A stretch of DNA of 32,000 nucleotides from an uncultured bacterium (GCA_963699255.1 OY969425.1:780001-812000); one strand, 5' to 3'; positions 5,431-29,512 are shown, numbered from the stretch's first letter. Numbers and translations: made by a program. The notes: generated by a model from the letters alone, not told the origin.

Positions 5431-7127
5431 AACTCTTCCAGCTTATCGACAGCCTTATCGATGTCTATCAGCTGGGTCTTTGAATCCGCCCTGGTCTTTA
5501 TCTCGACCTTCTTTTCCGCGAGAGACTTCGGACCTATTATGACCTTTATCGGAAATCCGATAAGGTCTATATCTTTCAGCTTGACCCCTATCGATGAATC
5601 CCTGTCGTCAAGGATCACCTCGACTCCTTTTTTGGAAAGGCCGTCATAGATCCTTTCGGCTACCTTCGATTGTTCCGGTTCCTTCATGTTCACCGGCACT
5701 ATGGCGACCTTGTAAGGAGCCAGCGACAGAGGCCACTTTATCCCGAAATCATCATTGTTCTGCTCGATCACTGCGCCGGCGATCCTGGATACCCCTATTC
5801 CGTAACAGCCCATTATGTACGGTTTTTCTTTCCCGTCCTCGCCGAGATAGTTCGCCTTCATTTTTTCGCTGTATTTGGTGCCTAGCTTGAATATATGTCC
5901 GACTTCGATCCCCCTGGTCATGACAAGTTTCCCTCCGCACTTCGGGCAGGGGTCGCCGACTTTAGCAAGCCGCAGATTATCGGTCTCATCCGCTTTGTAA
6001 TCCCTGCCGTATCTGACGTGGATCATGTGAGCGTCATTCTCGTTGGCTCCGGCGATGCCGTCTTCGATCTCCGTCACCGACCTGTCGGCGTATATCTTGA
6101 CACTCAATCCCACAGGCCCGGCAAAACCGACCGGAGCGCCGGAAACTTTTTCGACAGTTGCGGCGTCCGCCATCTCGATATCTTCCCTGCCGAGGATCTT
6201 CTTCAGTCTTGACTCGTTCAGCTGGTGGTCGCCCCTTATCAGGACAGCAACAACCTTATCTCCGGCTTTATAAAGCAGGGTTTTTATCATACATTCCTGA
6301 GGCACTTTCAGGAATTTTTCCAGTTCCTCAATTGTCTTTATGTTCGGTGTTTTTACCTTTTCAATTTTGGGTATCTTTTTCTCGCATCTCTCATCTCTCA
6401 TCTCGCATCTCTTGATTTCAGCCATTTCCTTCGCCGCCGCGTAATCGCAGCTGTCGCAGTGCATGATCTCATCCTCTCCCGTCGGCGACAGAACCATATA
6501 CTCCTGGGAGAATCCTCCGCCGATAGGCCCGGGATCGGCATGCACCACTTTATATTTGAGTCCGCACCTGTCAAAAATGCGGTTATAAGTTTCATACATG
6601 ATCTTATATGTTTTCTCCAGCCCCGCTTCGTCCTTATCGAAAGAATAAGCGTCCTTCATTATGAATTCGCGGGACCTCATCACCCCAAACCGGGGCCTTA
6701 TTTCATCGCGATATTTGGTCTGTATCTGGTAAAGGTTCAGAGGCAGTTCTTTGTATGACTTTACGTTGCTGCGGACAAGGTCGGTGATCACCTCTTCGTG
6801 CGTGGGGCCAAGGCAGAATTCCCTGTCGTGCCGGTCCTTTATGCGGAAAAGCTCCTTCCCGTAAACATCCCATCGGCCTGTTTCCATCCACAGTTCCGAA
6901 GGAAGAATGGCGGGAAGCTTGACTTCAAGGGCGCCGGCCCTGTCCATTTCCTGCCTTACGATCTGCTCGATCTTATGTATGACCCGCCATCCAAGAGGTA
7001 AATATGTGTAGACTCCTGAAGAAAGCTTCCTGATAAGGCCTGCCCTCAGCATAAGCTTGTGGCTCACTATCTCCGCTTCAGTAGGGTCTTCGCGGAGCGT
7101 GGGGGCAAGCAATCGTGACATCTTCAT
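5421..7127 (-). CDS. proS: Prolyl-tRNA synthetase (bacterial type with editing insertion)
   Basis: MSRLLAPTLREDPTEAEIVSHKLMLRAGLIRKL..., class II motifs and an anticodon-binding C-terminus. The ORF track starts at 7142, but by my reading codon 7140-7142 is TGG on the minus strand. I therefore place the start at ATG 7125-7127 (ATG 7119-7121 is also possible). Confidence 0.93.
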   Translation of the reverse strand: MKMSRLLAPTLREDPTEAEIVSHKLMLRAGLIRKLSSGVYTYLPLGWRVIHKIEQIVRQEMDRAGALEVKLPAILPSELWMETGRWDVYGKELFRIKDRHDREFCLGPTHEEVITDLVRSNVKSYKELPLNLYQIQTKYRDEIRPRFGVMRSREFIMKDAYSFDKDEAGLEKTYKIMYETYNRIFDRCGLKYKVVHADPGPIGGGFSQEYMVLSPTGEDEIMHCDSCDYAAAKEMAEIKRCEMRDERCEKKIPKIEKVKTPNIKTIEELEKFLKVPQECMIKTLLYKAGDKVVAVLIRGDHQLNESRLKKILGREDIEMADAATVEKVSGAPVGFAGPVGLSVKIYADRSVTEIEDGIAGANENDAHMIHVRYGRDYKADETDNLRLAKVGDPCPKCGGKLVMTRGIEVGHIFKLGTKYSEKMKANYLGEDGKEKPYIMGCYGIGVSRIAGAVIEQNNDDFGIKWPLSLAPYKVAIVPVNMKEPEQSKVAERIYDGLSKKGVEVILDDRDSSIGVKLKDIDLIGFPIKVIIGPKSLAEKKVEIKTRADSKTQLIDIDKAVDKLEELCR

Positions 7128-7174
7128 CTTTTTCCCGATCACCCCTGCCTAATAGAATTCGAGGAACATGTGTA

Positions 7175-7203
7175 TTATACAGGATTTACCAGTGAATTAC
7201 AAG
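7175..7203 (-). promoter_or_regulatory. Sigma70-like promoter upstream of proS
   Basis: On the minus strand: TTGTAA (7198-7203), 17 nt spacer, TATAAT (7175-7180). It lies about 50 nt upstream of the proS start. Confidence 0.4.
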
Positions 7204-7333
7204 TTAAGGTTTTTATTGATATGACAGCAAATAAGTGGTTTTTTCACGTAAATAAACCCCACGAAAAATAGCCAAAGGAGCAGGACAAACGAGAAGTTAA
7301 AAAAGATTAAATCTTGAATCAAACATACAAGGT

Positions 7334-8005
7334 TTATATATTATTTTCAATAAATATTTTAAAGGAAAGATCTGCCAGTTTTTCCGGCGTCAAAATATCC
7401 AGGTTCTTTGGAACTTTATAATGTGAGAACATTAATTGCCAAGCATATTGCCAGGGAAAATTTTGTGCATTTGGACCATCCCGCTTAGCCCTTCCGAAAA
7501 GCAAAGCAACAAAATTTAGCGGATCATAAGTCCCGGGTTTCATTCCTTTTACTGTGACCGTTGTCATATATCCGGGGAAAATAATTCTTACATCATCGAA
7601 TATTCCCTGGGTCAACGGAGGGAAAACCTTAAAAATGTTGTCCCGCGCACTACTGAATAATTCTGTTATATCTTGAGGATATCCGCACTCCCCTGTTCTT
7701 CCCATTAAAGATTCGGTTTTAAAAGAAATCTCTTTATCGGACTCGTCTAAAAAAAGCGCGCTTCCCAACGTATACGCGACCTCAACATTTTTAATTTCAT
7801 CATGTTCCCTATTTTCAAGCCCGTCACACCCTGCCAGCACACAACCGGTTCTCGCGTCAACAGGATGTCGATCAAAACGGAACAGGAACGGCTTTTTCAA
7901 TATTCCGCACTCCCCATATTGGGTATTATATTCTCGCTCTTTTACCACGAAGGAATTTTTAACCTTGCGAATAAAATGCCCATATTCGGATATATACATT
8001 CCCAT
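7334..8005 (-). CDS. Hypothetical protein (223 aa, orphan)
   Basis: A long ORF in an AT-rich island, with AGGAG 9 nt upstream of the ATG. It has no signal peptide or TM segment and I recognise no family motif. Confidence 0.6.
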   Translation of the reverse strand: MGMYISEYGHFIRKVKNSFVVKEREYNTQYGECGILKKPFLFRFDRHPVDARTGCVLAGCDGLENREHDEIKNVEVAYTLGSALFLDESDKEISFKTESLMGRTGECGYPQDITELFSSARDNIFKVFPPLTQGIFDDVRIIFPGYMTTVTVKGMKPGTYDPLNFVALLFGRAKRDGPNAQNFPWQYAWQLMFSHYKVPKNLDILTPEKLADLSFKIFIENNI

Positions 8006-8175
8006 ATTTTATATCTCCTATATTTGAGAGCTTAGAATAATTGACTTATTTTCAACCCCTCATCGCTTTCTGCGTATGTTATCGATAGATATAAGTGAAA
8101 ATTTCAGAAAGTACAAATATTTGATGGGGGATTTTTGTTTTTGCTGATATAAGGGAAATCGTCCCTGCGGATCAT

Positions 8176-10317
8176 CTACATCACTATTTTAGGAAAATCG
8201 GCGATCTCAAGGTACATTCTTTCCAGGGTTTTCAGGAGCGCCAGCCGGTTGGCGCGGACCTTTTCGTTCTTGTCCATCACCATAACCTTAACGAAAAAGT
8301 CATCAACAGGTTTCGTCATATTAGACAGCTCTTTCAACGCCGTTTCATAATCATTCCTGCCGATGGCTTCGCCGATGCGGGCATTGACGTCAAGATGAAG
8401 TGCATATAACGATCTTTCATCTTCCTGGACAAAATCAGCTTCAACCACGTTTTCCCTTGTCGCGTTGACGGCCAGCCTCGATATCCTGTCCGCCGTGAAA
8501 ACTATTCCCTTGAACCACTCCTCCTTAAGGCGCCTTGACAGGACCTTTGCTTTTTCGCAGACATCGAGCACATCTCCAAAATGAGAAAGCGCCGCGTCGG
8601 CGACATCATATTTTGTATTTCCTTCAATAAGGACGGCTTTTACTCTGGCCGCTAGAAAAGAGAGCACGTCGGAAGTGACTTTCTGGGCATTATTATATTT
8701 AACGTTCCCCGCCGTGAATATCTCGCCCAGGAAAAGCGGCTCATATAACTTGTAAGACTTTCCGATGAGGTCTTCCAGCTCCAGGTTTATTTTCCTGTTC
8801 AGGAGAACGCTGACTATGCCCTGAGCTTGCCTTCTTAGCGCAAAAGGATCTTCGGAGCCGGAAGGGATAAGGTTTATGCTGAAACATCCCACGATAGAGT
8901 CCATCTTGTCCGCTATCCCGACCACCGCGCCTTCGATGGAAGACGGCATGATATCTTCGGAATGCCTGGGAAGGTAGTGCTCGAATATGCCGTTCGCTAT
9001 CTCCTTCGGCTTGCCTTCGAGGAGGCTGTACTCCCTTCCCATAACTCCCTGGAGTTCGGGCAGCTCATATACCATCTGGGTCAGGAGGTCCGCCTTGCAA
9101 ATCTGGGCGATGCGCTTTATGTTCTCTCTCTGGCTCTGGTTAAGCTTGAGTTCTTTCGCTATCCAGTCGGACAGCGCGACGATCCTCTCCACTTTTTCGG
9201 AAACGGAACCCAGCTTGTCGTAAAACGCGACCTTCTCGAGCTTCGGCAAACGGTCTTCAAGGAATTTTTTTCTATCTTCGTCAAAAAAGAATTTAGCGTC
9301 ATAAAGGCGGGCCGCGAGAACTCTTTCATTGCCTTCCTGCACGTTCTTCAGCCCTTCTTTCCTAACTCCGTTCGCGATATTAACGAACAATGGAAGTATG
9401 CGCCCCGCTGGATCGGAAACCGATATGTATTTCTGGTGCTTCTTCATTACCGTAACGAGTACATCCTTTGGAAGGCTCAGGTATTCTTTTTTAAAGCCGC
9501 CGGAAAGCGGCACCGGCCATTCCACAAGGTAATTGACCTCATCAAGGATGTCCCCTTCGATCAAAGCCGTTCCGCCTTTTCTTTTTGCCGTCTCCCTGAC
9601 CATGTCCGATATCTGCGCCTTTCTCTCGTTCTGGTCAAGCATCACCTTGCCTTTTAAGAGGGCGCTCTTGAAATCCTTGATGTTTATGCCTTTCGCGGTA
9701 TTTATCGTTATCGGCTTCGAGCCGAAGAACCTGTGGCCGAACGTCTTATTTGAGGACCTTATGCCGGCTATCTCAAAGTTCATCACCTTTTTCCCGCAGA
9801 CAGCAAGTATCCAGTGCAGCGGGCGTATGAACTTAAAATCCACGCTCCCCCATCTCATTGAGATGGGAAGATAAAGCGATCTGATGAGCTTCGGAAAAAG
9901 CGATCCAAGGACCTTGTCGGTCTCGATCCCCTTTTCCGTGACGGACGCAAAAACAAATTCCTTGTCGCCGACCTTTTTTATCTTCAGGTCTGAAACGGAA
10001 ACTCCCTGGCCGTTCGCGAATCCCTCCCCCGCCTTAGTCGGGGCGCCGTTTTCGGCGAAAGCCACCTGTTTGTGAGGGCCCCTGACCTCTTTTTTAAGAT
10101 CGTCCTGCTTATGCGGAAGCCCCTCTATGTAAAGCACAAGTCTTCTGGGCGTGCCGTACGTTTCTATCGATCCGTATAACAGCCTTGACGCCTGAAGTTC
10201 TTTTTCAGCCTTTTGTTTAAGGTCGGCAAGTATTGCCGGCATGAACCTGGCCGGAACTTCCTCAAGGCCGATCTCCAGTAAAGCATTTATTTTTTTGTTT
10301 GTTTCCGTTTTTTTCAT
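8176..10317 (-). CDS. glyS: Glycyl-tRNA synthetase beta subunit
   Basis: 713 aa with LLEIGLEEVPARFMP...GTPRRL near the N-terminus, full-length GlyS architecture, and a position downstream of glyQ. Confidence 0.95.
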   Translation of the reverse strand: MKKTETNKKINALLEIGLEEVPARFMPAILADLKQKAEKELQASRLLYGSIETYGTPRRLVLYIEGLPHKQDDLKKEVRGPHKQVAFAENGAPTKAGEGFANGQGVSVSDLKIKKVGDKEFVFASVTEKGIETDKVLGSLFPKLIRSLYLPISMRWGSVDFKFIRPLHWILAVCGKKVMNFEIAGIRSSNKTFGHRFFGSKPITINTAKGINIKDFKSALLKGKVMLDQNERKAQISDMVRETAKRKGGTALIEGDILDEVNYLVEWPVPLSGGFKKEYLSLPKDVLVTVMKKHQKYISVSDPAGRILPLFVNIANGVRKEGLKNVQEGNERVLAARLYDAKFFFDEDRKKFLEDRLPKLEKVAFYDKLGSVSEKVERIVALSDWIAKELKLNQSQRENIKRIAQICKADLLTQMVYELPELQGVMGREYSLLEGKPKEIANGIFEHYLPRHSEDIMPSSIEGAVVGIADKMDSIVGCFSINLIPSGSEDPFALRRQAQGIVSVLLNRKINLELEDLIGKSYKLYEPLFLGEIFTAGNVKYNNAQKVTSDVLSFLAARVKAVLIEGNTKYDVADAALSHFGDVLDVCEKAKVLSRRLKEEWFKGIVFTADRISRLAVNATRENVVEADFVQEDERSLYALHLDVNARIGEAIGRNDYETALKELSNMTKPVDDFFVKVMVMDKNEKVRANRLALLKTLERMYLEIADFPKIVM

Positions 10318-10334
10318 AATTTGCCTTTAAATAC

Positions 10335-10470
10335 CAATCTTCAACATAAAACTTCAAACCTCAAACTTCAAAATCCCAGACAAATCTCAAATTCCAACTT
10401 TCAACCCCAATTTTGGGTTTAGAATTTGGGATTTATTTTGATATTTGAAGTTTGGATTTTGGATTTTTGA
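10335..10470. repeat. Long imperfect palindrome built from degenerate CAAAYTT-type units, in the glyQ-glyS spacer
   Basis: There are nested inverted repeats around a centre near 10411. These are CAAACTTCAAA (10362-10372) against TTTGAAGTTTG (10444-10454), an 11/11 match. AAATCTCAAATTC (10382-10394) pairs with GAATTTGGGATTT (10422-10434) at 12/13. AACCCCAA (10403-10410) pairs with TTGGGTT (10413-10419). The right arm encodes the last ~11 codons of glyQ. Confidence 0.6.
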
Positions 10471-11347
10471 TCAGCGGGTGCCCCATCGCCTCCCTCTGTT
10501 CAACATAAAGTTTGGCGCAATCCCTTGCCAGTCTCCTGATCTTTCCTATGTAAGCCGTCCTCTCGGTTACAGCGATGGCTCCGCGCGCGTCAAGGATATT
10601 GAACGCGTGGGAGCATTTAAGCACGTAATCGAACGCTGGCAGGACAAGCCTTGATCTTATCAGGTTGACAGCTTCTTTCTGGTAAAGATCGAACAGGCTG
10701 TTCATGATATTCATGTCGGCAAGCTCAAAGTTATATTTGCTGTACTCGATCTCTGATATTTTATGTATGTCCCCGTATTTTATCCCTTTTGCCCATTCGA
10801 CGTCATATACGCTGTCGACCTTCTGGGAGAAAGCCGCGATCCTCTCAAGCCCGTAAGTGATCTCAACGCTGACCGGATTGACGTCAAAACCTCCGCACTG
10901 CTGGAAATAAGTGAATTGCGTTATCTCCATTCCCGCAAGCCAAACTTCCCATCCGACCCCCCACGCCCCCAGAGTGGGCGATTCCCAGTTGTCCTCCACG
11001 AAACGGACATCGTATTTGTAGGGATCGATCTTTATTGCTCTTAAGCTGTCCAGGTAAATATCCTGGATGTTCAAAGGAGAGGGCTTCATTATCACCTGGA
11101 ACTGGTAGTAGTGTGCCAGTCTGTTGGGGTTCTCGCCGTAACGGCCGTCGGTCGGGCGTCGGACAGGATCAACATACGCGACGTTCCAGGGTTCGGGCCC
11201 CAGGACCCTGAAAAAAGTGGGCGGGCTCATCGTCCCGGCGCCTTTTTCCATGTCGTACGGCTGCTGGATTACGCAGCCCTGTTTTGCCCAGAAATTCGAA
11301 AGGTTCGAGATTATGTCCTGGAAATACATGCGGAGTGATTCTAACAC
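10433..11347 (-). CDS. glyQ: Glycyl-tRNA synthetase alpha subunit
   Basis: [35 protein letters not shown]...[24 protein letters not shown] is near-invariant GlyQ sequence. The track start is GTG at 11347. ATG at 11329 (MYFQDII...) is an alternative start. Confidence 0.95.
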
Positions 11348-11474
11348 AAGGCAATAGGTTGTTCAAATGCGCTCAAATAATATCAAGCACCTTATAACCC
11401 GGTGACAAAAAGGGGAAGAATAACGTCGGGAAAGTCAGAAATATCAATTACTGGACAAAAAAGCAGCAAAGTAG

Positions 11475-12530
11475 TTATTCGTTAATATGCAGACAATATG
11501 TATTTTCAAATGCATGCCCGGTAATTGAATGAGCAATATCTATACAGCCGCCTTTGCATTGTTCCCCATGTTCACACGTGGAGCATCTTCCTTTAAGAAA
11601 TGTCCTGTCAAAATGCCTCGAATAACAAAATAACTTTGGATCGTTCCAAATGTCATATAAATTTCTTTCTCTTATATTTCCTTCTACATATTGATCCGGC
11701 AGAGAATTGCATCCTTTGATGTTCCCATTGCTTTGGATCCCAAGATTTGATTTGCCGGCCTTACACCCATTCCAATGCATGCAATTAATGGAAGATCTCG
11801 GGAATTTATCGGAAAAATAACCGATATCATCGGCGCCTGCAATGGGGAGTTCAGCGATTGAATATTTTGTTGCCGAATCATGAACGAATTTGGCGATCCT
11901 TAGATAATCATGTTTATCAATGAAATATTCTTCATTAAAGCGGCAACCATTTTTACTGGCTATTTGGACCTGCCATCCGATGCCTTTGCCTAATATAATG
12001 TCCCGGATCAGGGGCATCTCATCGATATTAAGCTTATTGACAGTAGTAATAATTGAAACATTGATCCCATTTTCTTGAAATATTTTAATGGAGCGCATTA
12101 CCTTATCAAAAGAACCCTTAAAGCTTCTGATCCTATCATGAGTTTCAGGCCTTCCTCCATCCAAGCTTAAACCAATCACCTGTGGACCGGTTTTCATGAC
12201 CTTTGATGTTAAGCTTTTATTCCCCGGGAACAAAGAACCATTGCTTACATAAGTTACGCCTAGATCCAGATCTTTTATCAAGCGTGCTATCTCATACCAG
12301 TCCGCTCTTAAAAAAGGTTCTCCGCCGATCAAGGACACCCTCTTGAAACCGATCCTTTTTAGGTCTTTGGCCACGGTCTTAATTTCTTCTATTGATAATT
12401 CATTCGCCCTGTTCGCCCCTGCCGAACTTCCACAGTGCAAACACCTAAAATTGCATAGAAGGGTGATCTCCCAAACGGCGCAATCGGGGGTAATATCTTT
12501 TGAGATGGGTCGGATTATTCTTATCCTCAT
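11475..12530 (-). CDS. Radical SAM enzyme with C-terminal SPASM domain (peptide/protein-modifying type)
   Basis: It carries CNFRCLHC (CX3CX2C) at residues ~26-33 and GGEPFL. The SPASM cysteine pattern is complete: CKAGKSNLGIQSNGNIKGC (CX12GX4C) then CSTCEHGEQCKGGC (CX2CX5CX3C) and a final YC. Confidence 0.85.
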   Translation of the reverse strand: MRIRIIRPISKDITPDCAVWEITLLCNFRCLHCGSSAGANRANELSIEEIKTVAKDLKRIGFKRVSLIGGEPFLRADWYEIARLIKDLDLGVTYVSNGSLFPGNKSLTSKVMKTGPQVIGLSLDGGRPETHDRIRSFKGSFDKVMRSIKIFQENGINVSIITTVNKLNIDEMPLIRDIILGKGIGWQVQIASKNGCRFNEEYFIDKHDYLRIAKFVHDSATKYSIAELPIAGADDIGYFSDKFPRSSINCMHWNGCKAGKSNLGIQSNGNIKGCNSLPDQYVEGNIRERNLYDIWNDPKLFCYSRHFDRTFLKGRCSTCEHGEQCKGGCIDIAHSITGHAFENTYCLHINE

Positions 12531-12545
12531 ATAAAATACCGGTAT

Positions 12546-13523
12546 CTACCTGACGCAGACATTTGTTTTCATCACACGAGAAGCGACAACCCTCAAATAT
12601 CTATTATAATTCTCTTTTATAAAGAAGTCGGATCGAAAGATATTCGTTTTGCCGGCTTTCTTCCCGCTTTCAATAAAAAGCTGCAGATAGTCCTTTGCGC
12701 TATTATAATCCATTTTATTCCCGGCTGTTGCCAGTATGTCCCAGAAACTTTGTTTTGCCAGTTTATCAAGGGGTTCCTTAATGTCGCCTGATATGTCTGT
12801 TTTGCGGGAATCCTTCTTGTAATTCAATAAGAACAATAATGTCTTCGGGCTGACATATTTATAAAAATCAATAAAGGTCCGCAGCATTGTTCCATCCTTT
12901 ACGGACAAATAATCTTCAATGATCTTATTTAAACATGGCATGTCGGAATATTCGATCTTTATGCCCCCGTGCCTGTTTATCGCGCTTATTATGCTGTTCC
13001 TCATATCGGACCGCGCGGAACCGTTTTTTTGGGCGATCACCTGAATGGTTGGCTGGAAAAGTATTTCCTCGGTCCTGTTGGCGCTTGTAACTATAAATCC
13101 GCTTTTTTTCAACATATCGGCCAATAGATCATATGGAAAGCAGAATTTATGGGACATGCCGGGTTCTTCCGTGCCATAGATACAGCAGAGGATATTTTCT
13201 TTGTTTCCCGGTTCGTTTTGCCTTAAGTATTCAGAAAAAGCCTTTTCAATGTCGGGGGTTAAGATCTTAACTGTACCCTTGTCCTTTAAAAGCAAATAAA
13301 GATCGGCAAGAGTAAAATAAGCCTTACAAAATCCAAGGTGTTCAATAACATCCTTAAGCAATATCTCCTCAAAATAATCATGGGGCAGATTGAGCTTGAC
13401 GGCAGATTGAATAAAATCCGCGACCGATGCGGCGGAAATGTCGATATTTAAATAACCTGATTGATAATCAAAACCACAGCCAAGATTAATCTTCCTTGGA
13501 TATTTCTTCGTAAAAGATATCAT
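12546..13523 (-). CDS. Class I SAM-dependent methyltransferase with an uncharacterised ~150-aa C-terminal domain
   Basis: The N-terminal region has the glycine-loop motif INLGCGFD...GYLNIDI and later LKDVIEHL, as in Methyltransf_11/23-like proteins. I recognise nothing in the C-terminal half. The only in-frame ATG overlaps the upstream gene by 38 nt. Confidence 0.65.
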   Translation of the reverse strand: MISFTKKYPRKINLGCGFDYQSGYLNIDISAASVADFIQSAVKLNLPHDYFEEILLKDVIEHLGFCKAYFTLADLYLLLKDKGTVKILTPDIEKAFSEYLRQNEPGNKENILCCIYGTEEPGMSHKFCFPYDLLADMLKKSGFIVTSANRTEEILFQPTIQVIAQKNGSARSDMRNSIISAINRHGGIKIEYSDMPCLNKIIEDYLSVKDGTMLRTFIDFYKYVSPKTLLFLLNYKKDSRKTDISGDIKEPLDKLAKQSFWDILATAGNKMDYNSAKDYLQLFIESGKKAGKTNIFRSDFFIKENYNRYLRVVASRVMKTNVCVR

Positions 13524-14259
13524 CTTTGCTTATGACAGCATACCTCGTTCCTTTTGTATAGGGTTTATCAACTTGCGGGCTATTAACTCCCGCTGATGAA
13601 ATGAAGTTAGGAACTGTTGAAAGATTATAAATCCGTTGGTGCGTTGTGTTGTCAAGAATGTTTATAGTGTCTATTGTCATTTGAAAGCCTTCTTCGGTTT
13701 CAGCCAATTTCACACCCGTTGTATTCACGCCGTCTAGATCATTGGGCAAAGAAAGCTTGGCGGTGCCAAGATCGATAGTATGACCGTATGGAGTAGTGGC
13801 GGTTACGCCAGGAGCAAAATTTATGTAAATATTGCCACCCTCAAGAGAAAACTTTAATCCCAGATTTTTTAAATTGGCTGCAGAATTTACTTCAACAGTA
13901 TAATCATATTTATCGGCAACCTTGCTTCCCCCGGAAATACAGCTCATTATTTCAACGGATGGTTTTAAATATTTATTTGTAAATTTATCCAAAATTTCCG
14001 ATCCGGGCATTTCACCATATAAAGACGACATTATTTGATTTAATTTCGCATCAGTATTATCTTCTAACCATAGGTCCATTAACGTTGAACACGCTTCTTC
14101 CATCCTTTCATTTTCTGGCTTAGAGGTGTTATTCAATGATGCCGATACTTCATTTTTAATCGCTTCAGTATCTTCATCTAATCTGTTGGTTTTACCTTTG
14201 ATCTGAATACCGGATGTTATAGGCTTATTCGATCCAACCTTCATATCACCATTTGTCAT
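13486..14259 (-). CDS. Hypothetical protein (257 aa from ATG 14259), first gene of the radical SAM cassette
   Basis: The ORF track begins at 14298, but the ATG at 14257-14259 is preceded by AAAGGAG with an 8-nt spacer, giving MTNGDMKVGSN... The protein is rich in Asn, Thr, Ser and Gly, has no signal peptide or TM segment and shows no recognisable family. Confidence 0.6.
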   Translation of the reverse strand: MTNGDMKVGSNKPITSGIQIKGKTNRLDEDTEAIKNEVSASLNNTSKPENERMEEACSTLMDLWLEDNTDAKLNQIMSSLYGEMPGSEILDKFTNKYLKPSVEIMSCISGGSKVADKYDYTVEVNSAANLKNLGLKFSLEGGNIYINFAPGVTATTPYGHTIDLGTAKLSLPNDLDGVNTTGVKLAETEEGFQMTIDTINILDNTTHQRIYNLSTVPNFISSAGVNSPQVDKPYTKGTRYAVISKDDIFYEEISKED

Positions 14260-14303
14260 ATTTATCACTCCTTTTAGCGAACGATCAACCTTCAACACTG
14301 CAT

Positions 14304-14345
14304 ATTATACCTATGAATTTTATACCTGAACAATGCCCTTGTCAA
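14304..14345 (-). promoter_or_regulatory. Sigma70-like promoter of the orphan/MTase/rSAM cassette
   Basis: The minus strand carries a perfect TTGACA (14340-14345), followed after 15 nt by TATAAA (14319-14324), and a perfect TATAAT at 14304-14309. All lie about 45-80 nt upstream of the ATG at 14259. Confidence 0.4.
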
Positions 14346-14436
14346 ATAACAGTTGTCTGTTTGGATAATACTCCCTGAGACACCGGCAAAAGCCATTCAA
14401 TCAGTGGAGATAGATCGGGAAAGATCACTCACTCCC

Positions 14437-14465
14437 TTTCCATCCTTTTATAAATAATGTATAAT
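14437..14465 (+). promoter_or_regulatory. Sigma70-like promoter of fmdB-trpD, possibly giving a leaderless or near-leaderless mRNA
   Basis: TTTCCA (14437-14442), 17 nt spacer, TATAAT (14460-14465). Only 8 nt (GCCCCCGT) separate the -10 box from the ATG at 14474, and there is no Shine-Dalgarno sequence. Confidence 0.35.
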
Positions 14466-14473
14466 GCCCCCGT

Positions 14474-14716
14474 ATGCCGTTCTACGATTATAAATGCAAA
14501 GACTGCGGGAAAACCTTCGAGATAGAAAAGGGTATGAACGAAAAAGCGCACCCGAAGTGCCCGTTTTGCAAAAGCTCCCAGACCTCCAGGAAGTTCACGG
14601 CGCCCAGGCGCGCGCCGTCCAAGTCCGACTATCTCGACCACGAGGGAAGCGAACAGAGCGGATCGTGCTCATCCTGCTCGAGCGGGGTCTGTTCCACCTG
14701 CAACACGAAAGGATAA
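14474..14716 (+). CDS. FmdB-family zinc-ribbon protein (CxxC_CxxC_SSSS type) with a Cys/Ser-rich tail
   Basis: MPFYDYKCKDCGKTFE...HPKCPFCKS has two CxxC pairs at the family-typical spacing. The low-complexity tail is SGSCSSCSSGVCSTCN. Confidence 0.8.
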   Translation: MPFYDYKCKDCGKTFEIEKGMNEKAHPKCPFCKSSQTSRKFTAPRRAPSKSDYLDHEGSEQSGSCSSCSSGVCSTCNTKG

Positions 14717-14720
14717 TATA

Positions 14721-15734
14721 ATGATAAAGGACGCTATAAAAAAAGTAGTAGAAAATACGGACCTTTCAACTGACGAAGCCTCCACAGTAATGGGCGAGAT
14801 AATGCGCGGGGAAGCCACCCCTTCCCAGATATCCTGCCTTATAACCGCGCTAAGGATGAAAGGCGAAACGGCTGACGAAGTAACAGGTTTCGCTTCAAAA
14901 ATGAGGGAACATGCGTTAAAGATAGATGTGAAATTCGGCAACCTTATTGACACCTGCGGCACCGGCGGGGATTTCTCTGGGACGTTCAATATCTCTACCG
15001 TTTCAGCTATCGTTGCGGCCGCCGCGGGAGCCATGGTGGCAAAACACGGCAACCGCTCGGCATCCAGCAAATGCGGAAGCGCCGACGTACTTGAAGCGTT
15101 GGGAGTGAAGATAGACCTTCCCCCCCAAAAAGTCAAAAGATCCATCGAGGAAATAGGCATCGGATTCATATTCGCCCAGACTTTCCATCCCGCCATGAAA
15201 TACGCCGGTCCTTCCCGCAAGGAAATAGGCATAAGGACAATATTCAATATTCTGGGGCCTTTAACGAACCCAGCCGGGACCAAATTCCAGCTGCTTGGCA
15301 TCTTCAGCGAGAAACTGACCGAGCTGATGGCGCGCGTCCTCCAGAATCTGGGATCCACCGAAGTGATGGTGGTCCACGGGATGGACGGGCTGGACGAAAT
15401 AACCCTTACGGACAGGACCAAAATATCCCACTTAAAGGACGGGAACATAAAGACTTATTTCATCGAGCCAAAGGATTTCAGGATGAACCGATACGCGAAA
15501 GAAGATCTCATCGGCGGCTCCGTGAACGATAATGTAAAGATCACGCGTGACATCTTAAAAGGCGTTGAAAAATCCGCGAAACGCGACATCGTCCTGCTGA
15601 ACACGGCCGCTGCCCTGGTGGTTGGCCAGGTCGCGAAAGACATCAACGACGGGATAGCAAGGGCAAAAGAAGCGATAGACAGCGGAAAAGCTTTCAAAAA
15701 GCTTGAAGAGCTGATAAAGTTCACGAACGGCTAA
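14721..15734 (+). CDS. trpD: Anthranilate phosphoribosyltransferase
   Basis: 337 aa with DTCGTGGD, KHGNRSASSKCGSADVLEALG and NILGPLTNPA motifs. The start is 4 nt after the fmdB stop, with an AAAGGA RBS. Confidence 0.9.
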   Translation: MIKDAIKKVVENTDLSTDEASTVMGEIMRGEATPSQISCLITALRMKGETADEVTGFASKMREHALKIDVKFGNLIDTCGTGGDFSGTFNISTVSAIVAAAAGAMVAKHGNRSASSKCGSADVLEALGVKIDLPPQKVKRSIEEIGIGFIFAQTFHPAMKYAGPSRKEIGIRTIFNILGPLTNPAGTKFQLLGIFSEKLTELMARVLQNLGSTEVMVVHGMDGLDEITLTDRTKISHLKDGNIKTYFIEPKDFRMNRYAKEDLIGGSVNDNVKITRDILKGVEKSAKRDIVLLNTAAALVVGQVAKDINDGIARAKEAIDSGKAFKKLEELIKFTNG

Positions 15735-15736
15735 TA

Positions 15737-15799
15737 TCACCCTGAGCGAAAGCGAAGGGTCTGCCTTAACAGATTCTTCGTCCTTCGGATTCAGAGTGA
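15737..15799. repeat. Imperfect 63-nt hairpin element (GAGCGAAAGCGAAGGG type)
   Basis: The left arm TCACCCTGAGCGAAAGCGAAGGGTCTG (15737-15763) pairs with the right arm CAGATTCTTCGTCCTTCGGATTCAGAGTGA (15770-15799) through the blocks TCAC, CTGA, CGAA, CGAAG and TCTG. It lies between the trpD stop and the lptB RBS, and no U-tract follows it. Confidence 0.55.
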
Positions 15800-15817
15800 C
15801 AGGTTGGAGGAGTTAAG

Positions 15818-16531
15818 TTGCATATCAAAACCGATAAACTTATAAAATCTTATCACGGAAGGAAAGTCGTCGACGAAGTCTCCATCGAGGTCGAACAGGG
15901 AGAGATAGTCGGCCTTCTGGGACCCAACGGGGCCGGGAAAACAACGACGTTCTACATGGTCGTCGGCCTGGTCCGCCCGAATTCCGGCACCGTCTATCTA
16001 GGCGAAAAAGACATAACAAACATCCCCATGCACTTCAGGGCGCAGAGCGGCATAGGCTACCTGCCCCAGGAACAGTCGGTCTTCAGGAAGCTGACGGTTG
16101 AAGAGAACATCCTTGTCCTCTGGGAGCTGATGCCGCACATGGCGAACAATCAGGACATCGCTTTGATATTTGAGGAGCTTGGGATCTCGCATCTCAAGAA
16201 AAGAAAATGCTACGAGCTCTCCGGCGGCGAGATAAGAAGAGTTGAAATAGCCAGGGCGCTTGCCACGCATCCCTCGTTCTTATTGCTTGACGAGCCGTTC
16301 ACCGGGGTGGACCCGAAGACGGTATTTGACCTCCAGAAGATAATCGTCATGCTGAAAAAGAAAGGCATCGGCATACTGATAACCGATCACAATGTAAGGG
16401 AAACCCTTTCCATAACGGACCGCGCGTACATTATTCACAAGGGCAAGGTACTGATATCGGGTTCAAGCGATCAGATCGCCGGAGACGAGACCGCGAAAAG
16501 GCTCTATCTCGGCGAAGAATTCAAGATGTAA
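15818..16531 (+). CDS. lptB: LPS export ABC transporter ATP-binding protein
   Basis: TTG start preceded by GGAGGAG. It has the Walker A motif GPNGAGKTTTFYM, GIGYLPQE.S.F..LTV.EN, the signature LSGGE.RR.EIARAL and Walker B LLLDEP. The size of 237 aa is typical of LptB. Confidence 0.9.
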   Translation: MHIKTDKLIKSYHGRKVVDEVSIEVEQGEIVGLLGPNGAGKTTTFYMVVGLVRPNSGTVYLGEKDITNIPMHFRAQSGIGYLPQEQSVFRKLTVEENILVLWELMPHMANNQDIALIFEELGISHLKKRKCYELSGGEIRRVEIARALATHPSFLLLDEPFTGVDPKTVFDLQKIIVMLKKKGIGILITDHNVRETLSITDRAYIIHKGKVLISGSSDQIAGDETAKRLYLGEEFKM

Positions 16532-17619
16532 TGATAAAGATCATCGATCGCTATATATTCAAAGAGCTGTTCGATCCTTTTCTTTTCGGGCTCGGGGCCT
16601 TCACCGCGATACTTTCTGCAAGCATGATACTCTTCGACCTTGTACGTGCGGTCGTTGTAAGGGGCATGCCCCTTCTCACGGCCGTTCAGATATTCATATA
16701 CAGGCTGCCGGGGACGGCGGTTTACATATTCCCCATGGCCACGCTTCTCGCGGCGCTGCTCGCGTTCGGCAAGCTCTCCTCGCAGAGTGAGATAATCGCT
16801 TTTAAAGCTGGCGGAATAAGCCTGTACAGAATAATGGTCCCGGTCCTTACCTTCGGTTTTGTGATCAGCCTGGTTACTATGTTGTGTTATGAAGTCATCG
16901 TCCCGCGCGCCAATCTCGCCGCGACCGATCTAATGATGGTAACACAGGTAAGACAATCGCCCAAGATACAAAAGAACGTCCTTATTCCCGAAGTGGAAAA
17001 TGACACCCTAAAAAGGATGTTTTTCGCGGGATCCTTGAGGGGCGATCTGATGGAGAATGTGGTAGTTGAAGAGTTCACGGACGGAAAACTCTCTCAGATC
17101 ATCAATGCCAAAGAAGCAAAATGGGAAAAAGAAAAGAACACGTGGCTTTTCAAGAACGGGATAATCTATCTCTTGAGCGATACGGGAGAATACAAACACC
17201 TCATCAGGTTCAAAGAACAGTACATGACGATCAAATATTCGCCCGCTGATTTTTACATGGGGGACAGAAAGCCCGAAGAAATGAACATGATCGAACTGAA
17301 CAAATACATACAGCTGAAAAAGAAGATGGGTGAAAGCACTCTTGACCTTCAGATCCAGTATTTTCTCAAAGGGGCGATACCCTTCTCCTGCCTTGTGTTC
17401 GTCCTTCTCGGGGCTCCGCTGGGACTGTCCCCGCAGAGAAGTTCTTCTTCGATCGGGCTTGGGCTTTCTGTTCTGATCGTCGTCTTCTATTACTTCATTA
17501 CATTCGCCGCAATGGCCGTAGGCGAGCTGGGTTTAATACCGCCGATAGCCGCAGCCTGGCTTCCGAACATCATCACGGGAGGCATAGGAGCGTATATCCT
17601 GAACAAATCGGCTCAGTGA
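16531..17619 (+). CDS. LptF/LptG family permease (YjgP/YjgQ)
   Basis: 362 aa with the IIDRYIFKELF... N-terminus, six hydrophobic segments and a central periplasmic beta-jellyroll-like region. It is translationally coupled to lptB through the overlap ATGTAATG. Confidence 0.85.
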   Translation: MIKIIDRYIFKELFDPFLFGLGAFTAILSASMILFDLVRAVVVRGMPLLTAVQIFIYRLPGTAVYIFPMATLLAALLAFGKLSSQSEIIAFKAGGISLYRIMVPVLTFGFVISLVTMLCYEVIVPRANLAATDLMMVTQVRQSPKIQKNVLIPEVENDTLKRMFFAGSLRGDLMENVVVEEFTDGKLSQIINAKEAKWEKEKNTWLFKNGIIYLLSDTGEYKHLIRFKEQYMTIKYSPADFYMGDRKPEEMNMIELNKYIQLKKKMGESTLDLQIQYFLKGAIPFSCLVFVLLGAPLGLSPQRSSSSIGLGLSVLIVVFYYFITFAAMAVGELGLIPPIAAAWLPNIITGGIGAYILNKSAQ

Positions 17620-27740: not shown

Positions 27741-28526
27741 TTAATTTTTTGCCTCCTCTTGAAGGGATAAGAACATGGAATCCAGGGCGAGCCGCTTGTT
27801 GCCGTTCCGCTCTATCCCTCTCAATGCGTCAAATATCTTCCTGGCCGCCAGAATTTTCTCTCCCGACTTAAAACCGACCTTATCACTGAAGTTATACAGA
27901 ACGGAATTCAGCTTCCCCTCTACATCGGGATCAAAGCTCAGCTCTTCGGAAATGCGAAGCATTTGCGGTATGCTCATTTCCTCTATCTTTAAGATCTTCT
28001 CCGTCAGATCGTCAACGCTGTCATCGGATACTGGATTTTCATCATAAAAGATCAGCTTTTGACAGCGGGATGCGATGGTTTTAAGGATCTTGCTTTCCCT
28101 TACAGTGGTGAGTATGAACAAAATATTGTGAAGCGGCTCTTCCAGGGTCTTTAAAAAGCTGTTCGACGCCTCTTCGGTCATCTGGTCGGCGCCGTTTATC
28201 ACGATAACTTTCCATCCGGATCCCGACGGGCCGTATTTGACAAAGTCGGTGATCTGCCTTATCTCACTTATCTTGATGCTTTTATTATCACTAGAGAGGA
28301 TGAGCAAGTCGGGATGGATGCTTTTTTTGATCTTGCTGCAATTTTCGCACGGAACTTCTTCAAGGCCGCACGGAGAAATCCCCTTGGAAGTGCAGTTCAG
28401 GACCCTCGCAAAGAACGCAGCCTCATCAAGCAGGGATTTCGAGTCAGTGCCGACAAAAAGGTAAGCATTTGGTATTCTCCCGCTCGCCGCGGCACCTAAA
28501 AGGATCTTCCTTGAAATATCTTTCAA
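27741..28526 (-). CDS. holB: DNA polymerase III delta-prime subunit
   Basis: TTG start. It has the motifs IPNAYLFVG, the zinc-module-like C..C..C motif followed by IHPDL, and a box resembling the family's Walker-B region (VIVINGADQMTEEASNSFLKTLEEP). At 261 aa it is short but collinear with HolB. Confidence 0.85.
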   Translation of the reverse strand: MKDISRKILLGAAASGRIPNAYLFVGTDSKSLLDEAAFFARVLNCTSKGISPCGLEEVPCENCSKIKKSIHPDLLILSSDNKSIKISEIRQITDFVKYGPSGSGWKVIVINGADQMTEEASNSFLKTLEEPLHNILFILTTVRESKILKTIASRCQKLIFYDENPVSDDSVDDLTEKILKIEEMSIPQMLRISEELSFDPDVEGKLNSVLYNFSDKVGFKSGEKILAARKIFDALRGIERNGNKRLALDSMFLSLQEEAKN

Positions 28527-28590
28527 ATTTCACCACCGTGGCTATATTATAACAAAAATATAATTATTTGCCTTAAATTTATAGGGGCGT

Positions 28591-28600
28591 GGGGGGGGGG
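28591..28600. repeat. G10 homopolymer tract (C10 on the coding strand of neighbours)
   Basis: Ten consecutive G at 28591-28600, 65 nt upstream of the holB start and 29 nt downstream of the FGE-like ORF stop. Confidence 0.9.
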
Positions 28601-28628
28601 AACTATTAATGATGCGATTTGAGGTGTG

Positions 28629-29357
28629 TTATATTCTTTTGGGGCTTCCTTCTTTAAATTTTAGAAGAGAGCTGAAATTTACACAAAATCTCAAAAAGGA
28701 TGACAGAGGCCTGAAATATTTATACTCGACAAGACGAAGCGCGGTGTAGTAAGGAGATAAGGCGCAGTAATAATGAGTCTCGGGGTGAAGGATCATCCGA
28801 TCCGTTTCGAGCGTGGAACAGAGAACATAGGAACGCGACCCTTCAATTTTAGTTTCGGTCCATTCCCAATTATCCCCTAACAATTTATGTTTAACTGATT
28901 TGTAGGCTTTCAGCCATTCAACCTCGGTCGGGATCACGAATTCTCTGCCGGTTATCTCGTTCAGCCTTTTAACAAATGCTCTGTATTCATGCAGGTTGAG
29001 GGATGTTCTAATGTCGGCTTCCGACGGATCACCAAGAACAGATTTGTGTCGTTCGGTACCATGCCCTCTGATCTCATATTCTGTGTCTTTCATGCATTGG
29101 TTGAACAGGTCGAAAGATACTTCTACTTGCATAATTCTGTAAGGTTTTCCCCGGACGTTGATGAGTGATAATTGTGGCAAAATAATTCGGCTGTTATTTT
29201 TCTGCATCAATTTCATATTGATATCGATCCTTTCCCGGACCATATTCTCGCACGCCCGATACGCCACTTCTGAGGTGCTTAATCTGACTGATTTGCGCAC
29301 TCGCTTCATCGGACGCTCAATGACAATTTTTTTTAAATTCACGCCCAATCCCGCCAT
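28629..29357 (-). CDS. Hypothetical protein with a divergent FGE-sulfatase/SUMF1-like domain
   Basis: 242 aa in an AT-rich island. KPYRIMQVEVSFDLFNQCM...LHEYRAFVKRLNEITGREFVIPTEVEWLKAY...GDNWEWTET...YTALRLVEY follows the SUMF1 pattern (Y.I...EVT...F..F, A.AFC.WL....G...RLPTE.EWE.A, WEW, GFRLV), but the match is weak and shortened. Confidence 0.5.
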   Translation of the reverse strand: MAGLGVNLKKIVIERPMKRVRKSVRLSTSEVAYRACENMVRERIDINMKLMQKNNSRIILPQLSLINVRGKPYRIMQVEVSFDLFNQCMKDTEYEIRGHGTERHKSVLGDPSEADIRTSLNLHEYRAFVKRLNEITGREFVIPTEVEWLKAYKSVKHKLLGDNWEWTETKIEGSRSYVLCSTLETDRMILHPETHYYCALSPYYTALRLVEYKYFRPLSSFLRFCVNFSSLLKFKEGSPKRI

Positions 29358-29512
29358 AGTTTTAATTCATCTCCATTAAACCTCGGAACATTTACATGGC
29401 AATATATTATCGTCAAATTTATAAATAAATTTCGCTTATTAATGATAATTGAACAAACTATATGTCTATATATGTGCGAGGTTTTAGAGGGGCGAGATTG
29501 CCTATATTTTCC

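Follow-up and report, generated by a model that had tools for sequence, protein, structure and literature searches.

A mobile three-gene radical SAM/SPASM cassette in which an orphan protein is the probable substrate

What does a radical S-adenosylmethionine (rSAM) enzyme with a SPASM domain act on when no short precursor peptide is encoded beside it? The question is raised by a 32,000-nucleotide stretch of DNA from an uncultured bacterium (GCA_963699255.1, OY969425.1:780001-812000), here called the window, in which three minus-strand open reading frames (ORFs) occupy the interval from glyQ (start 11347) to the divergently oriented fmdB-trpD pair (start 14474) and encode, in order, a protein without recognized relatives (the orphan), a methyltransferase and an rSAM/SPASM enzyme. 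The original prediction, made from the DNA of the window, described these genes as a possibly acquired modification module and proposed as substrate either the orphan or an unlinked target. Judging from the comparisons reported here, the 257-residue orphan is very probably both the substrate of the cassette and the missing precursor, because its disordered C-terminal tail has a core motif that is shared with the C-termini of over 100 short peptides whose genes adjoin those of related enzymes in archaea and bacteria. We consider it likely that the three genes form an operon for protein modification that is self-contained and moves horizontally, with the orphan as its substrate and the tail modified at or beside Tyr240.

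The orphan protein and its C-terminal tail

The orphan ORF (13486-14298) encodes 270 residues from a GTG codon and 257 residues from the ATG at 14259 (13486-14259), the methyltransferase ORF (12546-13523) encodes 325 residues and the rSAM/SPASM ORF (11475-12530) 351 residues, all on the minus strand. A 38-nt overlap joins the orphan and methyltransferase genes, 15 nt separate the latter from the rSAM gene, and based on this close packing the three are probably translationally coupled. The GC content is 0.37-0.42 over 11501-14500 versus 0.45-0.52 in the glyQS and fmdB-trpD flanks, in agreement with the earlier description of three co-directional, AT-rich genes.

The orphan had no match in Pfam or NCBIfam. 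An exhaustive profile search of 1.84 billion representative proteins returned a family of just 13 members, and a search of 5.8 billion clusters gave one non-self match. The most conserved stretch of the family is at the C-terminus, where most members end in Y-T-P-G-T-R-Y-A-V; since the core stretch sits upstream of the 38-nt overlap with the methyltransferase gene, the overlap does not explain its conservation. An AlphaFold2 model based on a 2-sequence alignment had a predicted local distance difference test score (pLDDT) of 49.6, and an 11-sequence alignment was used instead (pLDDT 79; predicted template modelling score 0.71). In the latter model residues 15-217 (13609-14217, minus strand) form a compact fold of four helices and a beta sheet at a pLDDT of about 90, and residues 218-257 are predicted to be disordered. 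The fold search that had been proposed for this protein was run with Foldseek and found no match for the domain in the PDB or BFVD. The disordered tail contains the core motif Y234-T-K-G-T-R-Y240-A-V-I-S-K-D-D-I-F-Y250 (13510-13560, minus strand; core YTKGTRYAVISKDDIF), in which Tyr240 (codon 13540-13542, minus strand), preceded by Arg239, is the proposed site of modification and corresponds to the anchor Tyr of all 108 aligned cores described below.

No ORF of at least 20 residues with the family core motif was present in either intergenic flank, and when a hidden Markov model (HMM) of the core was run against the 353 ORFs of the window the orphan was the sole match, which bears out the original observation that neither the cassette nor its flanks hold a short precursor gene. 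The FmdB-type zinc-ribbon protein encoded at 14474-14716 has a Cys/Ser-rich C-terminus (GSCSSCSSGVCSTCNTKG) and was considered as a Cys/Ser-rich precursor; it was rejected as a Zn_ribbon_8 protein (49.5 bits) that is kept beside trpD in relatives free of the cassette, and it is not part of the cassette. No RNA family was identified in the window by Rfam search.

The enzymes and the core motif in a wider family

The third gene encodes an rSAM/SPASM enzyme in which the expected CX3CX2C cluster motif, CNFRCLHC, is at residues 26-33 (12432-12455, minus strand) and is followed by a SPASM domain (11493-11765, minus strand) with seven conserved Cys residues (C256, C274, C316, C319, C325, C329 and C346) that are invariant in the alignment of the family. 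Both domains scored above their Pfam cut-offs (Radical_SAM, 98 bits; SPASM, 33 bits against 21.5), as anticipated from the cysteine signature noted at the outset. The radical SAM core starts at residue 21, and there is therefore no room for an N-terminal RiPP recognition element (RRE) domain, RiPP denoting a peptide that is ribosomally synthesized and then modified post-translationally. In NCBIfam the best match, over the full length of the enzyme, was TIGR04103 ("nif11-class peptide radical SAM maturase 3"; 204.5 bits, cut-off 725), followed by TIGR03913 ("GDL motif peptide-associated maturase"; 201 bits, cut-off 592), and the models for AhbD (148 bits, cut-off 500), NirJ2 (140, cut-off 500), MftC (126, cut-off 265), PqqE (82, cut-off 381) and anSME (68, cut-off 349) were likewise matched below threshold. 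No curated NCBIfam cut-off was reached. The enzyme does not fall inside a characterized clade, and on its scores it belongs to a related family of TIGR04103 and is not a member at the curated threshold. Solved structures were distant in a PDB profile search (SkfB 92, PqqE 73, SuiB 68 and anSME 49 bits), and identity to MftC was 24-25%.

The methyltransferase (12546-13523, minus strand) consists of a conserved, putative class I S-adenosylmethionine domain at approximately residues 1-160 and a helical C-terminal domain of ~160 residues that is confined to its own family. The glycine loop INLGCG that had been read from the sequence is present, with motif I (NLGCG) at residues 13-17, and family members show no variation in this motif or in the acidic residue D28. 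The protein had no assigned family at cut-off in Pfam or NCBIfam scans: the Pfam match of the window protein was weak (Methyltransf_23, E 0.05), its homologues match Methyltransf_11/23, with an Asgard homologue at 22.2 bits against a Methyltransf_11 cut-off of 21.2, and its PDB profile matches were class I methyltransferases at E values of about 1e-3. The 5.8 billion clusters contained eight matches, seven of them non-self.

The rSAM enzyme has 13 close homologues at 55-90% identity and, below them, a large family at 37-48%. A scan restricted to one genome per species gave 79 loci, from Promethearchaeota and Thorarchaeota, Thermoplasmatota, Elusimicrobiota, Chloroflexota, Melainabacteria, Syntrophia, Nitrospirota, WOR-1 and others. 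A homologue of the methyltransferase lies beside the rSAM gene in 51 of these 79 loci, and in 35 of the 45 that have at least 3 kb on both sides. When all neighbouring genes were clustered, only the rSAM enzyme, the methyltransferase and small precursor proteins were conserved across loci; no peptidase or transporter was. The small proteins adjoin rSAM enzymes that are 37-55% identical to the window enzyme, and they end in Y-P-x-G-T-x-Y-[S/G/A]-[T/S/V]-[V/I]-S-x-K-D-F. The core HMM matched neighbouring ORFs in 62 of 92 sources, at one to five tandem copies per locus, and gave no match at E<0.05 in a 652-kb control (6971 ORFs). Among the genome loci, 55 of 79 have a core-bearing ORF beside the rSAM gene, in line with the general pairing of a maturase with an adjacent substrate. 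The original observation that a conventional precursor is missing stands for the window, where none was found; in the wider family short precursors are the rule, and the window clade is the exception. The possibility that the orphan is itself a substrate was strengthened, as the core in its disordered tail is also found at the end of over 100 short precursors that are encoded next to homologues of the rSAM enzyme and the methyltransferase.

To define the core, 108 different sequences were aligned on the anchor Tyr (Tyr0). Position -6 is Tyr in 82 of the 108 cores and position -3 is Gly in 94. At position +1 there are 50 Ser, 33 Gly and 13 Ala residues (96 of 108 together), and Tyr, Phe or His in the other 12; position +2 is Thr (63), Ser (31) or Val (13) in 107 cores. 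Val or Ile is found at +3 in 98, Asp or Glu at +7 in 97 and Phe at +8 in 87. The core ends only 3-4 residues after Tyr0, and is without Y-6 and F+8, in the forms from Chloroflexota, WOR-1 and loci L012 and L085. The residue before Tyr0 is Arg, Leu, Lys, Tyr or Phe in 104 cores, and in the window clade it is always Arg or Lys. Twenty-nine loci with tandem precursors provided 76 paralogue pairs, and among these the residue before Tyr0 was the most variable core position, differing in 97% of pairs, compared with 0% for Tyr0 itself and 8% for position +1. A typical locus has a panel of one Leu, one Arg/Lys and one Tyr/Phe version before the Tyr. Such panels, together with canonical x-Y-G-T cores, are found in the Asgard locus L007 and the Thermoplasmatota locus L014. 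Inspection by eye of Y-6, T-2, T+2 and D+7 showed no consistent pattern of a core residue tracking the presence of the methyltransferase.

Core-bearing short neighbours are 57-134 residues in length and occur in tandem arrays. A conserved N-terminal helical leader (consensus IIKLYKIGKKLGLSKKEIN) was identified in 77 of 101 short precursors, followed in the Asgard precursors by a membrane helix. Five of the short precursors were scanned against Pfam and NCBIfam and no family was assigned. The segment NLKNLGLKF within the orphan was considered as a cryptic leader and was rejected, since the leader HMM built from the 77 short precursors did not match the orphan family; on the structural model, a folded domain appears to have replaced the leader in the window clade.

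Several loci differ in how the core is carried. In Elusimicrobia (L061 7550-7915, and also L042, L059, L062, L065, L069, L073, L077 and L081) the leader, KLYELGAKTGL..EV, lies within the unusually long n-region of a lipoprotein signal peptide, with lipoboxes that include LSGC, LAAC and LTAC. Export by Sec and Lgt would strip such a leader, which may explain the absence of a dedicated peptidase or exporter. A Kunitz/BPTI domain lies between the signal sequence and the Tyr core in three precursors from Syntrophus, Geobacteraceae and Nitrospiraceae metagenome-assembled genomes (MAGs) (L020 4556-4984, L037 4517-4990 and L044 4580-4984), with Pfam scores of 52, 53 and 20 bits, respectively, the last being under the 21-bit cut-off. 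The Thermoplasmatota loci L014 (3571-8262) and L016 (4013-8396) encode two paralogous rSAM/SPASM enzymes, one methyltransferase and up to five tandem precursors of 57-70 residues, each with a different residue before the Tyr (Tyr, Phe, Arg, Lys, His). Chloroflexota carriers of the core are zinc-ribbon or PMT_2-like proteins, and in L047 (30-1346) the core ends a 438-residue PMT_2-like membrane protein with a zinc ribbon. The core occurs twice in one protein in L030 (2723-3352) and L053 (4327-4707). Based on these double cores and the membrane carrier in L047, the tag appears to be portable. Finally, a high-GC relative (L012 5143-5888 and 8931-9707; rSAM 55% identical) encodes a 99-residue precursor ending in GPGTRYAVVDKNDL. 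No counterpart of the window methyltransferase is present in this locus, and a membrane methyltransferase of the ICMT/PEMT family is encoded 1.9 kb downstream on the other strand.

Recurrence, acquisition and expression signals of the cassette

The trio was identified in four further sources, with its gene order and its orphan/methyltransferase overlap unchanged: two Candidatus Margulisbacteria MAGs (L001 and L003), in which the trio adjoins cysS, a "Deltaproteobacteria" MAG (L010), in which it lies between lpxA and a PIG-L gene, and a Joint Genome Institute contig (P0004). Together with the pairing of methyltransferase and rSAM genes in the wider family, this recurrence answers the question of whether the genes co-occur elsewhere. 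The neighbours of the trio are unrelated and different in each host, and in every host the trio is lower in GC than its flanks (0.36 versus 0.52, 0.37 versus 0.48, 0.39 versus 0.46 and 0.32 versus 0.36).

The closest syntenic relatives of the window genome were found by a metagenome scan with GlyQ. In L093 (GlyQ 84% identical) the order lptF-lptB-trpD-fmdB | glyQ-glyS is kept, with typA at the junction, and L094 (73%) has an identical gene order with a tetratricopeptide repeat (TPR) protein between fmdB and glyQ. Locus L095 (74%) retains lptF-lptB-trpD and glyQ-glyS; fmdB was undetected there and the cassette is absent. None of the cassette genes was detected on the short contig L092 (85%), where typA lies upstream of glyQ. 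The window DNA is homologous to that of L093 up to 11336 and again from 14452, and the segment 11337-14451 is without a homologous counterpart in L093, which has typA here. Since the fmdB|glyQ junction of the closest syntenic relatives has other genes, and DNA homology breaks there, the cassette is, on this comparative evidence, an acquired insert in a variable site. The earlier suggestion of horizontal acquisition is therefore upheld by the AT-richness of the trio in all hosts, its differing neighbours and its absence at fmdB|glyQ in the closest syntenic relatives. The typA/bipA gene is directly upstream of glyQ in both of the closest relatives (L093 4034-5833; L092 867-2669), and none was identified in the window within the examined positions 9000-17000.

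Promoter-like signals and a strong ribosome-binding site of the cassette's own had also been noted and are present on the minus strand. The best sigma-70-like site within 11200-14800 matches at 11 of 12 positions and consists of a -35 hexamer TTGACA (14340-14345) and, across a 17-nt spacer, a -10 hexamer TAAAAT (14317-14322). A second -10-like sequence, TATAAT (14304-14309), and the ribosome-binding site AAAGGAG (14268-14274), 8 nt upstream of the ATG at 14259, were read directly from the sequence. A signal scan of the region found no terminator-like site downstream of the rSAM gene.

A 9-nt direct repeat, TCGGGAAAG, on the plus strand at 11426-11434 and 14415-14423, had been described as bracketing the unit and as only suggestive. 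It has exactly two copies, and at least two matches were obtained in 13 of 100 shuffles, i.e., the repeat is not significant. It was considered as an insertion scar and set aside, and it is unusable for defining the ends of the cassette because homology with the relatives stops outside it. Elsewhere in the window there are two AT-rich pockets, at 7001-8500 (GC 0.39-0.43), with a 223-residue ORF (7334-8005), and at 28501-29500 (GC 0.40-0.41), with a 242-residue ORF (28629-29357); neither ORF has a Pfam match, and both may be further acquired genes.

Proposed chemistry and relation to known systems

In the mechanism that we favour, one sigma-70-type promoter would drive three translationally coupled genes. 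The substrate would be the 257-residue protein, with its folded carrier domain of ~200 residues and its disordered 40-residue tail with the core motif; the rSAM/SPASM enzyme would modify this tail on or next to the invariant Tyr240, and the methyltransferase, putatively of class I, would add a methyl group to some site. As for the type of chemistry, a precedent is provided by the PlpX-type spliceases, SPASM rSAM enzymes (IPR026482) with Nif11/NHLP precursors that excise a tyramine unit at X-Y-G, and whose products inhibit proteases (PMC11002830, PMC10849128, PMC11626197, PMC11414181). By analogy, a tyramine unit may be excised from Arg239-Tyr240-Ala241, and we tentatively rank such a splicease-like step first, at a level that falls somewhat short of probable. 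It is preferred over a cross-link because the Tyr is invariant, the residue after it is small and the residue before it is variable and P1-like. Fusions to a protease-inhibitor (Kunitz) domain also fit, and splicease-type chemistry is further indicated by the x-Y-[G/A] peptides encoded beside the nearest annotated relatives. In Nostoc, a TIGR04103 enzyme (33% identical) lies between a Nif11-type precursor ending in ..IALYGLPPELF, which precedes it, and a small ORF. In Azospirillum, TIGR03913 enzymes (33-34%) are preceded by three peptides of the DUF1843 type that contain ..MLYGG.., ..KPYGV.. and ..PMYMA.., and an Aureibacter relative (32%) follows peptides with ..VLYAAG.., ..PMYAAS.. and ..QPYGAG.., with a class I methyltransferase next. 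The guess of a module modifying its own cargo is supported by the comparisons above. Splicease-type chemistry is a refinement that was absent from the original prediction.

Several points weigh against this interpretation. All members of the family are known from sequence alone, and their chemistry is deduced from it. The window motif is R-Y-A compared with X-Y-G in spliceases, half of the family has Y-S and the +1 residue in Elusimicrobia is Tyr, Phe or His, although x-Y-A is also found in the related DUF1843 peptides. The rSAM enzyme is far under the curated cut-offs (204 of 725 bits for TIGR04103; 201 of 592 for TIGR03913) and only ~33% identical to the annotated members of either family, and although TIGR04103 is probably the family of the tyramine splicease PlpX, this equation rests on one annotated locus and a review. 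The orphan family does not have the helical leader of the short precursors (E>0.3). There is no signal peptide on the orphan and no protease or exporter in the three-gene cassette, so that a role as a secreted inhibitor is not obvious in the window host. Finally, nothing accounts for the role of the methyltransferase, and the one found in Aureibacter is not homologous to it.

The second-ranked possibility, which we consider unlikely, retains the orphan as the substrate and has the rSAM enzyme make a Tyr-centred cross-link without excision, with the methyltransferase capping a hydroxyl or carboxylate. The link could join the ring of Tyr240 to the beta-carbon of Val242 in a three-residue cyclophane of the triceptide type (an aromatic-X-X motif) or could run to the upstream Tyr234. 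Many SPASM maturases form C-C or C-O links, among them SuiB, PqqE and SkfB, which are the best solved relatives, and WgkB, DynA and MftC, which are among the NCBIfam matches listed. The core is compatible too, given that position +2 nearly always offers a beta-CH with a branch or hydroxyl (Thr, Ser or Val, counted above) and that a second aromatic residue is common at -6 and a Phe at +8. However, both aromatic residues are missing in the Chloroflexota, WOR-1, L012 and L085 forms, triceptide maturase models (XyeB type) are absent from the best 25 NCBIfam matches and the two nearest families adjoin x-Y-[G/A] peptides. Nor does a cross-link account for a residue before the Tyr that is the most variable among paralogues and yet limited to Leu, Arg/Lys or Tyr/Phe.

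It is highly improbable that the orphan is an accessory partner (a scaffold, chaperone or immunity protein) whose C-terminal motif is a docking tag for the enzymes, the true substrate being unlinked. In favour of this, the cassette contains no leader-type sequence, RiPP precursors are usually much smaller than the orphan and SPASM enzymes with unlinked substrates, such as anSME, do exist. Against a docking role, the motif is the sole conserved C-terminal element of the short 57-134-residue neighbours, which have a separate N-terminal leader and form tandem arrays, no other gene is conserved in any locus and the tail is predicted to be disordered and accessible. More improbable still is an AhbD/NirJ-like (haem) or pyrroloquinoline quinone (PQQ)/mycofactocin-like enzyme of cofactor biosynthesis, with the tail Tyr becoming a small redox cofactor tailored by the methyltransferase: PQQ and mycofactocin both derive from a peptide Tyr, conservation of the core between domains of life is unusually strong, anaerobic lineages harbour the family and AhbD (148 bits), NirJ2 (140) and MftC (126) are among the NCBIfam matches, but these are far under their cut-offs (e.g., 148 against 500 for AhbD), MftC identity is 24-25%, neither haem or cofactor genes nor a peptidase lie nearby, and a single cofactor product would not need a residue beside the Tyr that varies systematically among paralogues.

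Returning to splicease-like excision, a wider reading is possible, although on balance doubtful, in which the window enzyme is a rare representative of an extensive splicease-like rSAM branch that is paired with dedicated methyltransferases and installs a methylated ketoamide-type warhead at the invariant Tyr of a portable C-terminal tag, with specificity set by the preceding residue (Leu, Arg/Lys and Tyr/Phe panels). Such a branch would span Asgard archaea, Thermoplasmatota, Elusimicrobia, Margulisbacteria, Chloroflexota, Syntrophia and Nitrospirota, and the carriers of the tag are secreted peptides, lipoproteins, Kunitz-domain proteins and, in the window, a ~200-residue domain without detectable fold relatives. 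The residue panels and Kunitz fusions suggest genetically encoded protease inhibitors in anaerobic bacteria, Asgard archaea and Thermoplasmatota. To our knowledge, hardly any ribosomal natural products have been described from these two archaeal groups. If correct, an orphan three-gene island would open a widespread enzyme-substrate family without a curated model and with a 15-residue tag, and the window genome would have recently acquired a module that modifies its own cargo protein.

An rSAM/SPASM enzyme that modifies an adjacent ribosomal substrate, possibly of splicease type, is already known. Neither Pfam 2025 nor NCBIfam June 2026 has an entry for this rSAM family, its C-terminal tag, the seemingly obligatory methyltransferase, the reach into Asgard archaea and Thermoplasmatota or the 200-residue carrier. 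No description of these features was found in the searchable open-access literature. Part of the rSAM family may already be listed as a "type" in the main splicease survey (Scott et al., Chem 2022).

Of the named systems, the remaining SPASM maturases (PqqE, MftC, SuiB/StrB, SkfB, anSME and the triceptide cyclophane synthases) share with the window enzyme the CX3CX2C motif, the seven-Cys SPASM domain and the modification of a ribosomal peptide or protein, and PqqE and MftC also act on a Tyr. In contrast, their sequence relation is distant, the window enzyme is without an N-terminal RRE and has no PqqD/MftB-like partner encoded, and there is no conserved Cys, Lys-Trp or Glu-Tyr pair in the core of its family. 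Unlike RiPP systems that have a leader peptidase or exporter in the cluster, the window cassette encodes neither.

The GDL-motif (DUF1843) systems of TIGR03913, for which no published chemistry was found in the literature searched, are closer. They provide the second-best NCBIfam match (201 bits), at 33-34% identity, and have tandem small substrates with x-Y-G or x-Y-A. They differ in that the Tyr motif of DUF1843 peptides is N-terminal and not C-terminal, the maturases are longer (about 475-516 residues) and the window enzyme is under the cut-off of 592 bits. The Aureibacter cluster resembles the cassette in having a class I methyltransferase directly after the rSAM gene. It is located on plasmid pAT1 of Aureibacter tunicatorum (L175 2198-4968), where genes for three DUF1843 peptides and the rSAM enzyme precede a 187-residue class I methyltransferase unrelated to that of the window (BLAST E 0.53), and judging from this lack of homology a related system seems to have recruited its methyltransferase independently. 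The closest annotated relative of the window enzyme (38.5% identical) is encoded on a plasmid of Agathobacter rectalis, where an unannotated small ORF ending in ..GPVMYGTGVRM (L174 3695-3901) lies directly upstream of the rSAM gene and a major facilitator superfamily transporter follows; this locus may represent the family in the human gut.

The spliceotide systems (PlpX, RhaX and RasX) are the nearest. The window family departs from them in having no Nif11/NHLP leader, in its dedicated methyltransferase in most loci, in its extension to Asgard archaea and Thermoplasmatota and in its core, which is R-Y-A (R239-Y240-A241) in the window and not X-Y-G, while 50 of the 108 cores have Y-S and 12 have Y-Y, Y-F or Y-H; the window enzyme is also far under the TIGR04103 cut-off of 725 bits. 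Conversely, in both systems an rSAM/SPASM enzyme is encoded beside its substrate and an invariant Tyr is followed by a small residue and preceded by a variable, protease-P1-type residue, and the window enzyme has its best NCBIfam match in TIGR04103 and is 33% identical to the annotated Nostoc member. Binary splicease systems without a separate RRE protein exist, and PlpXY has been used to splice tags engineered into whole proteins (PMC11414181). The tag described here is short, C-terminal and portable, with one invariant Tyr, and would, like the spliceases, be attractive both as a new post-translational chemistry and as a handle for protein engineering.

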